Of a stretch of 64,000 nucleotides of DNA, positions 40,545 to 43,280 are shown in pieces. The stretch is from a virus. Taxonomy: Duplodnaviria > Caudoviricetes. The notes beneath the pieces are model-generated. The model had not been told where the DNA came from. It saw only the letters and a program-made list of their open reading frames with translations, and made no database searches. Within the stretch, counting starts at the first letter, position 1. Every line of letters begins with the position of its first letter. The stretch lies in the IMG/VR virus record IMGVR_UViG_2551306162_000001, positions 1 through 64,000 of that record; one strand, 5' to 3'. Position numbers and translations under genes: made by a program.

Positions 40545-41487
40545 GGTCAGGCACCCCCAGCCGCATCAGCGGGACGCCAAGTCGGTACCAGAGGCGGCAC
40601 ACGGAAAGTCTGTCGTCGAATGCGCCCAGCACGTGAAAGCGATTCCGGATGTGCTCGTCAAACAAGCCGCTTTTCACCAGGTAGTCCGGCCGTTTGTCGC
40701 CCGCGGCGCGCATGTGCAGCTCGGTGAACATGACGCCGTGGTTGAGCAGCCAGTCGGCGGTCTCGGTCATGCAGTCGGAGTCGCGGCCGGACAGCACGAT
40801 GATCGCGGAGTCGGCGGCCAGCTTCTGCACGACCTCGATGGTGTGCGCGATCGGCAGGTCGTCCTTGACCCGGCTGTAGTCGTAGATGTCGCGGTCCGGG
40901 TGCTTCTGCGCGAGCGTCCCGTCGACATCCACGATCCACGCAGGCGGCAGCGACGGGTCGGGCTCGTAGGGCACCGGGTAGAAGTACAGGTCCGGGGACG
41001 GTTCGACCGGCGCCCACATCTTGCGCGGGAAGCGTTTGGCCAGCGCGCGGATCGCGTCCTCCCCCACCGTCCGGCCGCCATCCGCGCCGCGGGCGGCGTC
41101 ACGGCGGACACATTCGTCTACGGGGGTTTCGAGGTCGATCACCTCGACGTCCGCGCCGTGCAGGGCGGCGAAGTTGGCCCAGCCGCGTGTCCACTGGGCG
41201 CGCAGGTTCATGGCGTCGACGAACACGTCGTAGCCGCCGTCGAGCAGGGCCGCTGCTTGGGCGCGTTCGGCTTTCGAGATGATCTCTTCCTGCGCGTGCG
41301 TGAGTCGGCCCTCCGCGGCGAACAGGGTGGCGCGCAGGTCGTCCCGCGACACCCGAGCCAGGTTGGGGTTGTCCGCGTGCATCCGCCGGAACAGGCTCGA
41401 CTTCCCCGCCCCCGGCCAGCCGCGGGGAATGATCACCCGCGGGCTGGCCGGGACCGGGATCACGTCGACCAGATCGGTGGCGGTCAT
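40531..41487 (-). CDS. pnk: Polynucleotide kinase/3'-phosphatase (T4 PseT-like)
   Basis: GWPGAGKS P-loop, SRDDLR; DVDGT, SGR and FDDR HAD motifs. Confidence 0.92.
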   Translation of the reverse strand: MTATDLVDVIPVPASPRVIIPRGWPGAGKSSLFRRMHADNPNLARVSRDDLRATLFAAEGRLTHAQEEIISKAERAQAAALLDGGYDVFVDAMNLRAQWTRGWANFAALHGADVEVIDLETPVDECVRRDAARGADGGRTVGEDAIRALAKRFPRKMWAPVEPSPDLYFYPVPYEPDPSLPPAWIVDVDGTLAQKHPDRDIYDYSRVKDDLPIAHTIEVVQKLAADSAIIVLSGRDSDCMTETADWLLNHGVMFTELHMRAAGDKRPDYLVKSGLFDEHIRNRFHVLGAFDDRLSVCRLWYRLGVPLMRLGVPDHDDF

Positions 41488-42059
41488 GCTGCGACCCCAC
41501 CTTCGGCCTCCAGGTCGACGGTGTTCTCGTCGTCGAGGGCTTTCGTCTCGTGCTGGAGGAAGATCGGCGACTTGGCCTTCAGTGTGGTCGGGTGCAGGGT
41601 GTCGACGGTGCGGATGCACACGCCTTCGTCGACGAGCTTCTTCGACCCCGACAGCGGGACCGCCTGGCCGTAGCCCTCGTCGTAGTAGCGGCGGTCGATC
41701 CAGTCGGCGGGGTCGAAATCCTTGTGCGCCAACTCCGTCAACACCGGCACCGTCTTCAGGCCGAGGTTCGCGCACCACTCGACGAGCTGGCCCCACGCGA
41801 GGTCGGTGATCAGGCCCTGCGGGTTGACGTGCGCGACACGGTACACGTACAGGTCAGCCTCGCCCTGGGGGACGTTGTAGGTGTAGCCGGACTGGATCGG
41901 TTCGCCCTCGGGCGTCCAGCCGATGAGTTCGCCATAAACGACGAACCCCTCGGGAATCAGACCGTCGAGGCGACGCCCGTAGTGCGTCCAGACGTCGCCG
42001 TTGAAATCGGCTGCCGTATCAGTCTTTCCAGTTGCCCGCGCCAGCAGCTTCTTCAGCAT
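41484..42059 (-). CDS. RNA ligase, C-terminal half
   Basis: YGELIG (III), YVYRV (IIIa), EGVCIR (IV) and LKAKS (V); own GGAGG RBS and ATG. Confidence 0.85.
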   Translation of the reverse strand: MLKKLLARATGKTDTAADFNGDVWTHYGRRLDGLIPEGFVVYGELIGWTPEGEPIQSGYTYNVPQGEADLYVYRVAHVNPQGLITDLAWGQLVEWCANLGLKTVPVLTELAHKDFDPADWIDRRYYDEGYGQAVPLSGSKKLVDEGVCIRTVDTLHPTTLKAKSPIFLQHETKALDDENTVDLEAEGGVAA

Positions 42060-42501
42060 GCTTCTTCCTCCGGTGATAGTCCTGCGAGTAGGTGTTTTCC
42101 GCGTCCTTGCACGGTTGGCAGCGGCAGGAGTAGAGGCCGTACATCGCGCGGGTGCCGTGCTGGACCCGCCCCTTTTCCTGTCGCCGTGGAGGTCGGGTCT
42201 CGTTGTGGGCCAACATCTCGCCGATACGGTTCGACCTTCGTGTACCCATGTACGGGAGAATCGCTGTCACGACGTTGAGCACCTCGCGACGGTTTCCGAT
42301 TCGCCACGTGTATGCCTGCTTGCGCCCCTCACGGAGTGCCTCTGCGCGGACCGAGCCGTAGCCGACAACGTCGCAGAGGCGCTGGATGACATCTCGATCA
42401 GTCATCGTGCAGTTGACAGCAAGCCCACCGTTGCCCTTGATGAGGAAGCAGCCTTCCCCTTCAAGCAGTCCAGCGACCCAAGCGGTTTCTTCCGGGGTCA
42501 A
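42019..42501 (-). CDS. LAGLIDADG homing endonuclease with C-terminal Zn motif
   Basis: WVAGLLEGEGCF, MTDRDVI; HGT..Y...CRC..C; TTG overlaps the upstream TGA. Confidence 0.88.
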   Translation of the reverse strand: MTPEETAWVAGLLEGEGCFLIKGNGGLAVNCTMTDRDVIQRLCDVVGYGSVRAEALREGRKQAYTWRIGNRREVLNVVTAILPYMGTRRSNRIGEMLAHNETRPPRRQEKGRVQHGTRAMYGLYSCRCQPCKDAENTYSQDYHRRKKHAEEAAGAGNWKD

Positions 42502-43280
42502 CGGTCCACCTTCGAACCATAGAAGTGGTTCTGCTCCGCCTTCGGGTCCTTGATGACCCTTCGGCTGCCGTACACGGTGTCGTAGATGTACTCGGCGACC
42601 GGCACCTTCAGCCAATGGGCGGCGAGCTTGTCACGCCAGGTCGGCTTCCGCTTCGCGATGGTGTTGCCGATCCGGATGCTCGTGCCGTGCAGCTTCTGGG
42701 TGATCACCACCCGCGCCTCCGGGTCGATCAGGTGTTCGTTGCCCCAGTAGCGGGTGGTGTCGTAGTGCTCGGGCAGGAACTTCGCGTCGACCCGCACGAA
42801 CTTCTTGGTCGCCTTGGCCTGCGCCGACACCCGGCCGCTGCCCTTCACGGGCCGCTCGTACTTGCGGCAGATCTCGTGGTCGTCGAGGGCGTCGAAGGTG
42901 TCGCCTGGTCGCAGCTTCGTCACGTCGTACCCGGTGTAGGCCAGCGACTCGAGCGGCATGAACAGGGCGTCGCTGCGGTGGCCGCGGAGCTTGATCGCTC
43001 GGACGCGGCGGTTGCGCTCCAGGTAGCCCTTCTCGGCCTGGTCAGCGTTCAGGCTGGGCTCGCGGTGCAGGTTGTTGGCCCGCGCGTACTCCTCCGACAG
43101 CTGCGTCTCGGCCGTGAACACGACGCCGAGATCACCGGCGGCGCGGGTCTTGTCGACGATCGCCTGGTAGCCCAGCAGCGGCGCGCCGGCGATGTTGTCG
43201 CAGCCGGCCAGCTCGTTCACCGCGGGCAGCTGGACGACCACGGCCGCGTAGTTCGCGTTCTTGGGTGTGGTGAGTGCCAT
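42498..43280 (-). CDS. RNA ligase, N-terminal half
   Basis: RVRAIKLRGHRS, PEHYDT, TQKLHGTS (motif I), YGSRRV. Confidence 0.85.
   Translation of the reverse strand: MALTTPKNANYAAVVVQLPAVNELAGCDNIAGAPLLGYQAIVDKTRAAGDLGVVFTAETQLSEEYARANNLHREPSLNADQAEKGYLERNRRVRAIKLRGHRSDALFMPLESLAYTGYDVTKLRPGDTFDALDDHEICRKYERPVKGSGRVSAQAKATKKFVRVDAKFLPEHYDTTRYWGNEHLIDPEARVVITQKLHGTSIRIGNTIAKRKPTWRDKLAAHWLKVPVAEYIYDTVYGSRRVIKDPKAEQNHFYGSKVDR

Follow-up and report, generated by a model that had tools for sequence, protein, structure and literature searches.

In the 64,000-nucleotide stretch of viral DNA analysed here (Duplodnaviria; Caudoviricetes), positions 1 to 64,000 of IMG/VR virus record IMGVR_UViG_2551306162_000001 and hereafter the window, the gene for an RNA ligase is interrupted by the gene of a free-standing LAGLIDADG endonuclease. 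That the ligase is present as two genes split by the endonuclease gene is near certain, and comparison with related loci indicates that the window probably encodes a functional ligase made of two chains. Both halves of the ligase and the endonuclease lie on the same strand, with the following layout.

42498..43280 (-): ligase N-half, 260 amino acids, with an OB-like N-terminal domain and the first part of the nucleotidyltransferase domain
42695-42693 (-): lysine codon of motif I (KLHG), in the N-half, which also carries motif Ia (SR)
42515-42513 (-): codon of S256, the last native residue of the N-half, followed by the foreign tail KVDR and a TGA stop
42019..42501 (-): endonuclease open reading frame (ORF), 160 amino acids, TTG start, single-motif LAGLIDADG, free-standing
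41484..42059 (-): ligase C-half, 191 amino acids, with a 21-amino-acid leader and native sequence from D22 (41996-41994); motif III is E44, motif IV is DEG 144-146 and motif V is K161 and K163
41997..42512 (-): cassette absent from intact alleles, 516 nt; homology boundaries by blastn at 41998-42503
42067..42071 (-): GGAGG Shine-Dalgarno sequence for the C-half, 7 nt 5' of its ATG and within the endonuclease coding sequence
42506..42510 (-): GGTGG, Shine-Dalgarno-like, 4 nt 5' of the endonuclease TTG and made of N-half tail codons
42007..42018 (-): 12-nt copy of the YGSR (motif Ia) codons, immediately 3' of the endonuclease stop; its twin is at 42561-42572 in the N-half

A ligase gene divided between its catalytic motifs

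The ORFs, coordinates, overlaps and GGAGG reported by a first-pass annotation, made from the letters alone, are all present in the window. The three genes are tightly packed: the endonuclease TTG overlaps the TGA of the N-half (TTGA), the C-half and the endonuclease have 41 nt in common, and all but about 5 nt of the insert belong to an ORF. Since the length of the insert, 516 nt, is a multiple of three, the N-half and the C-half share one frame, with the endonuclease in the -1 frame relative to both, and three in-frame stops, all of them TGA, separate the two halves. The claim that the endonuclease is free-standing, with neither an intron nor an intein around it, is borne out by an empty Rfam scan, by the few nucleotides left outside the ORFs, and by a tail and a leader that are too short. 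A promoter and terminator scan found nothing exceeding the shuffled expectation.

Both halves match the same PHROGs RNA ligase family (phrog_968), the N-half at profile positions 3-238 and the C-half at 277-397. In Pfam, PF09414 is found in the C-half, and the OB-domain family PF21189 gives a weak match to the N-half (E 3e-4), short of its curated cutoff. The split places the OB domain on the same chain as motifs I and Ia and leaves motifs III, IV and V to the second chain, in agreement with the distribution first proposed, and KLHG, E44, DEG 144-146 and K161/K163 all fall in columns that are invariant across the family alignment.

When solved structures were searched by sequence, the intact ligase gave no match, and its relationship to the Naegleria gruberi enzyme NgrRnl was identified by fold search alone: for the model of the best intact relative (P0002, locus L005) the top Foldseek matches were the N. 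gruberi RNA ligase structures, over the full length and with an E-value of 4e-15. Because of this full-length match the ligase of the window is predicted to be an Rnl5-type enzyme (NgrRnl/DraRnl-like), an OB-like domain followed by a nucleotidyltransferase domain.

The exact break point

The closest relatives of the split gene are uninterrupted ligases of 425-427 amino acids from Nocardia genome assemblies, with 74-84% identity to the N-half, and the gene order phosphoesterase, ligase, Pnkp (polynucleotide kinase/phosphatase) is common to the window and these intact relatives. Aligning both halves to uninterrupted ligases, a check that the first-pass annotation had suggested, locates the break exactly at S256|D257 of the intact 426-amino-acid relatives, and in the alignment with P0002 the junction reads ...NHFYGS|DVWTHYG.... 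The end of the N-half, ...YG-SKVDR, had originally been read as foreign from the serine onwards. This holds for KVDR and fails for S256, which is native in intact relatives, so that the foreign tail comprises only KVDR.

Along the ligase, the break falls between motif Ia and motif III. Its flanks are among the most conserved residues of the protein, with Y254 and D257 invariant in the family and H252 and W259 nearly so; homing endonucleases typically target conserved sites. In the AlphaFold model of P0002 (mean predicted local distance difference test score, pLDDT, 84.5) the break coincides with the end of a loop (residues 246-255, pLDDT below 50), directly before the helix formed by residues 258-266, and hence is predicted to sit in a flexible loop of the nucleotidyltransferase domain.

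The same architecture recurs in related loci

Split loci were sought by searching genomes and viral contigs with an endonuclease profile and then scanning the flanks of the matches with the intact ligase. Two metagenomic loci, L006 and L089, are split at the same site as the window, with endonucleases that are 52% and 46% identical to that of the window, respectively, and the protein database holds five further stand-alone C-halves that start at this site. Other splits lie upstream of it, by ~11 codons in L130 and by ~30 codons in L008 (which matches L090), in L009 and in Mycobacterium phage BaboJay. The last of these also provides the best phage-database match to the endonuclease, gp90, which is 37% identical and is encoded between two coding sequences annotated as RNA ligase. 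The arrangement seen in the window is not unique, given that BaboJay was deposited with the same architecture and that splits are common in this ligase family.

Some loci resembled these splits in part. One candidate for a same-site split, P0175 (L129), was rejected, as it proved to be a one-base frameshift in an otherwise contiguous ligase. In L007 (P0031, 1618-2653) a ligase N-half ends ...DIWTDDR, five codons past the site of the window, and is followed by an unrelated ORF that has no family match and runs off the contig. The 293-amino-acid protein P0151 has a LAGLIDADG N-terminus that continues, from about residue 223, as a ligase C-half, possibly an in-frame fusion that arose as an endonuclease decayed.

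BaboJay is the sole phage with a split ligase among the 157 cluster E phage records matched. Downstream of its insert the sequence is 99.4% identical to that of an intact sister, while upstream 20 of the 29 mismatch or gap positions are concentrated in the last 60 nt before the insert. This cluster of mismatches is a co-conversion signature of homing, and the BaboJay insertion is demonstrably a recent invasion. Of 200 genomes sampled from the same genus as the window, some 15 had a clear ligase match, and the insert was present in the window only. We looked for a co-conversion tract around the window's own insert and saw none. The presence or absence of the cassette among close relatives, together with the co-conversion at the BaboJay flank, indicates that it is mobile.

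Translation signals are carried by the cassette

The frame relations are constant, with the halves always in one frame and the endonuclease always in the -1 frame across the six split loci compared. In the five loci where the start of the C-half could be fixed (the window, L006, L089, BaboJay and L008; L009 was not counted), the C-half ATG lies within the 3' end of the endonuclease gene (5/5), mostly behind a purine-rich, Shine-Dalgarno-like stretch. This stretch is a clear GGAGG or AGGAGG in the window and L089, and is weaker in L006, BaboJay and L008. The N-half stop is supplied by the 5' flank of the endonuclease. That the invader provides the new translation signals, as the first-pass annotation had argued, is supported by the comparison of these loci. 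The sequences of the tail and of the leader are not conserved between loci.

As for the origin of the leader in the window, the 12-nt direct repeat is exact (sense TACGGCAGCCGA), and the copy that follows the endonuclease stop is in frame with the endonuclease. A repeat of this kind had a probability of about 0.0015 by shuffling. Together with the degenerate TTCAACGGC, it suggests that the C-half leader represents a duplicated and shortened version of ligase codons 237-256.

The endonuclease

The motif VAGLLEGEG is found near the N-terminus of the endonuclease and does not vary among three relatives. The protein scores below the cutoffs of Pfam LAGLIDADG_1 and LAGLIDADG_3, and a profile built from three members matches I-HjeMI (2e-7) and I-AniI (3e-7), both solved LAGLIDADG enzymes. 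The last 50 residues form a Cys-rich module (CRC..C), whose PHROGs matches are families annotated as HNH endonuclease, HTH DNA-binding protein and integrase. The TTG start in the window aligns with the GTG or ATG starts of related endonucleases. The G+C content at third codon positions of the endonuclease gene (0.72) is lower than that of the N-half (0.94) and the C-half (0.87), which fits a foreign origin.

Two relatives differ in context or in structure. An endonuclease at L088:3001-3447, 52% identical and one of the two closest relatives found, has the same TPEETAWVAGLLEGEGCF start and lies outside any ligase, upstream of a 184-amino-acid ORF whose GTG start it overlaps by 13 nt. The endonuclease at L130:1945-2535 carries two copies of the C-terminal GCRC..C module.

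Both halves persist under selection in related split loci

Comparing the window with five intact alleles gives ratios of nonsynonymous to synonymous substitution rates (dN/dS) of 0.21-0.28 in the N-half and 0.08-0.14 in the C-half. These equal the values among the intact alleles themselves, and with L125 as the reference allele the dN of the window is not raised. No second ligase of the same family, which could make the split copy redundant, was found in the genome.

Two related phage contigs, L127 and L128, are more informative on what happens after the split. Both are split at the BaboJay site, and both ligase halves are intact in each. All that remains of the endonuclease in L127 is a 37-amino-acid C-terminal relic (L127:2404-2517). 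In L128 (L128:2501-2660) what survives is about 20 N-terminal endonuclease codons and a C-terminal relic, translated in another frame as a 50-amino-acid leader of the C-half, and the former start codon of the endonuclease now starts the C-half. The ligase halves of the two contigs are 69-72% identical in amino acids, with dN/dS values of 0.22 and 0.14, compared with 0.21 for the neighbouring SSB gene, these ratios being approximate because dS is near saturation. Since the halves are intact and constrained after the endonuclease has decayed, the split state outlives the endonuclease under purifying selection.

More broadly, the protein database contains 63 short ligase C-terminal proteins. When 41 stand-alone C-halves, including that of the window and the frameshifted P0175, were grouped by the start of their match on the intact ligase, the starts clustered at residues ~225, 233-240, 245 and 256/257. 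The family-invariant catalytic residues (E279, D379-E380-G381, K396, K398 and others) are kept in 40/41 of these C-halves. We also modelled the whole locus as a pseudo-fusion, with TGA read as Trp: both ligase parts were predicted with high confidence and residues 246-426 were disordered, a result that stems from the intact relatives in the alignment and should not be taken as a sign that the halves bind.

Gene neighbourhood

The gene for Pnkp directly follows the C-half, and a second nuclease gene lies beyond it.

40531..41487 (-): Pnkp (polynucleotide kinase/phosphatase), whose ATG overlaps the stop of the C-half (ATGA)
39960-40544 (-): second free-standing endonuclease gene (NUMOD4 + HNH_3), overlapping the end of Pnkp

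The overlap between its ATG and the C-half stop places Pnkp in the same RNA-repair gene string as the ligase, and with the NUMOD4 + HNH_3 gene next to Pnkp this string contains two mobile nuclease genes. In same-genus relatives an unassigned ORF of 100-114 amino acids lies between the ligase and Pnkp (L005:5278-5580); it is absent in the window, at 41484-41487. The G+C content of the window's 94,472-bp contig is 67.6%, against 71.6% for the whole assembly, and phage-type RNA-repair genes are present on it. It has the look of a contig of phage or prophage origin in the genome assembly of an actinobacterium.

Comparison with known systems

The closest precedent is the nrdA gene of Aeromonas phage Aeh1, which is split by mobE. 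The order nrdA-a / mobE / nrdA-b was reportedly described as 'genes in pieces' by Friedrich et al. in 2007. The two systems share a free-standing homing endonuclease gene in a conserved catalytic region, two separately translated polypeptides without an intron or intein, short tails that derive from the insertion, and an active site that must be composite. The NrdA halves do form an active enzyme (Crona et al. 2011, PMC3045599; PMC2988022). However, MobE is an HNH enzyme and the endonuclease of the window a LAGLIDADG one; an essential reductase is affected in Aeh1, and here an accessory RNA ligase whose activity is predicted. The tails in the window are short and not conserved, and ligase splits are broader, with several hot spots and dozens of distinct alleles.

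Within the ligase family, BaboJay gp89/gp90/gp91 (MK016491.1, annotated in the deposited record as RNA ligase, 'HNH endonuclease' and RNA ligase) resembles the window in the ligase family, the related endonuclease, the frame relations and the overlaps, and differs in the position of the insertion, as given above. A literature search found no paper on a split ligase of the Rnl5-type family, BaboJay's included. NgrRnl itself (Rnl5; PDB 5cot, 6vt1) shares the N-terminal OB-like domain and nucleotidyltransferase motifs I, Ia, III, IV and V, but is 16-18% identical, single-chain and eukaryal. Split genes whose products reassemble are also found in the T4 family, namely gene 60/39 with mobA, and gene 43A/43B (PMC2988022). 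As in the window, an endonuclease is associated with the division of a phage enzyme gene into two cistrons, although other enzymes and other endonuclease families are involved and gene 60 also uses translational bypass.

Weighing the explanations

The explanation that we favour is as follows. A mobile cassette built around a single-motif LAGLIDADG gene would have inserted between the S256 and D257 codons of an Rnl5-type ligase gene, bringing with it a short tail and stop codon that terminate the N-half, a ribosome-binding site and start for the endonuclease, and, in its 3' end, a GGAGG and ATG that restart translation in the ligase frame. The ligase would then be made as two polypeptides, of which the first has the OB domain together with the adenylated lysine and the second has motifs III-V, and these most likely co-fold non-covalently into one active enzyme. 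The reassembled ligase would work with the adjacent Pnkp in RNA repair. The anatomy of the locus, its exact break and the mobility of the cassette are established, as is the fact that related split loci keep both halves under selection; that the halves associate and act as a ligase we infer from the comparisons described above.

Several observations weigh against a functional two-chain enzyme. A phage ligase is an accessory gene and could be lost without killing the phage. The insertion in the window is lineage-specific and could be too recent for intact ORFs and normal dN/dS values to speak on function after the split. When the C-terminal region is used to build a tree, split alleles lie dispersed between intact ones, with at least 21 state changes, which means that invasion is frequent and that many split alleles may be young. 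Finally, the lack of conservation in the tails and leaders makes it unlikely that they act as dedicated interaction domains of the kind seen in Aeh1 NrdA.

One alternative is that the window holds a recently disrupted pseudogene, an accessory gene that was invaded and whose halves are inactive, with too little time elapsed for decay. We regard this as a serious but clearly less likely explanation. It would account for an insert found in the window only, among the sampled ligase-bearing genomes of the genus, and for the scatter of split alleles on the tree; BaboJay illustrates how recent such invasions can be, and a high G+C content can hold ORFs open by chance. Yet the low-GC locus L006 keeps its frames open too, the halves of L127 and L128 are under purifying selection after decay of the endonuclease, catalytic residues have been kept in about 40 diverged stand-alone C-halves, and the C-half start is maintained within endonuclease 3' ends that are only 37-52% identical.

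The other two alternatives would restore a single ligase chain. A self-splicing intron, of group I or of the atypical mycobacteriophage type, nearly filled by the endonuclease ORF and spliced out to restore the ligase mRNA, is very improbable, even though the two halves are in the same frame, spliced introns do occur in cluster J mycobacteriophages (PMC3706429), and the LittleE intron is associated with a LAGLIDADG nuclease with a C-terminal module shared with HNH proteins, as here (PMC3706429). Permissive Rfam scans gave no match in the window (E up to 10) or in five related split loci (E up to 1), and only ~5 nt of the insert lie outside ORFs, compared with 265 nt for the endonuclease-less BAKA intron (PMC3706429). 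At the homology boundary exon 1 would end in G (window) or C (L006) where group I introns expect U. A stop, a Shine-Dalgarno sequence and an ATG would be pointless in an intron, yet the start is kept across loci, and L127 and L128 have lost most of the insert with their halves still under selection. We give still less credence to a single chain obtained through post-translational splicing of a split intein (a 'fractured gene'), or through ribosomal bypass or read-through of the insert as it is translated. Fractured genes in which a free-standing endonuclease separates the halves of a split intein have been described (PMC2677866), but here a 4-amino-acid tail and a 21-amino-acid leader are too short for intein halves, the tail lacks an initial Cys, Ser or Ala, the leader ends in FNG with no His-Asn, and D257 is no nucleophile. 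Read-through finds some support in the fact that all three in-frame stops of the insert are TGA, although reading TGA as sense would add 147 residues that are disordered in the model. For bypass, the 516 nt to be skipped are ten times those of T4 gene 60, and we know of no precedent for a translational bypass of this length.

Implications

A bolder reading, which we consider doubtful, is that this LAGLIDADG family represents a specialised gene-splitting cassette, producing a permanent fission that outlives the endonuclease and gives an evolutionarily stable two-chain RNA ligase. Such a cassette may be aimed at surface loops in a 35-codon region of Rnl5 ligases and carry its own stop and restart signals, letting the host enzyme survive as two subunits, and the split could have been co-opted, for example by making ligase assembly conditional. 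If true, this would be a natural two-chain ligase in which one chain bears the adenylated lysine and the other chain the remaining catalytic motifs.

With this locus, an RNA-repair ligase and a LAGLIDADG enzyme join the few documented cases in which a gene split by a free-standing homing endonuclease probably stays functional, and from the comparison at least three split points emerge that the Rnl5 nucleotidyltransferase domain tolerates in nature. The loci described here cover the life cycle of the element, from recent invasion (BaboJay) through established split alleles to decayed relics with halves under selection. For annotation they carry a warning, since paired short 'RNA ligase' ORFs around an 'HNH endonuclease' would represent one functional unit. 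They could also be used directly to test composite active sites and to engineer split RNA ligases.

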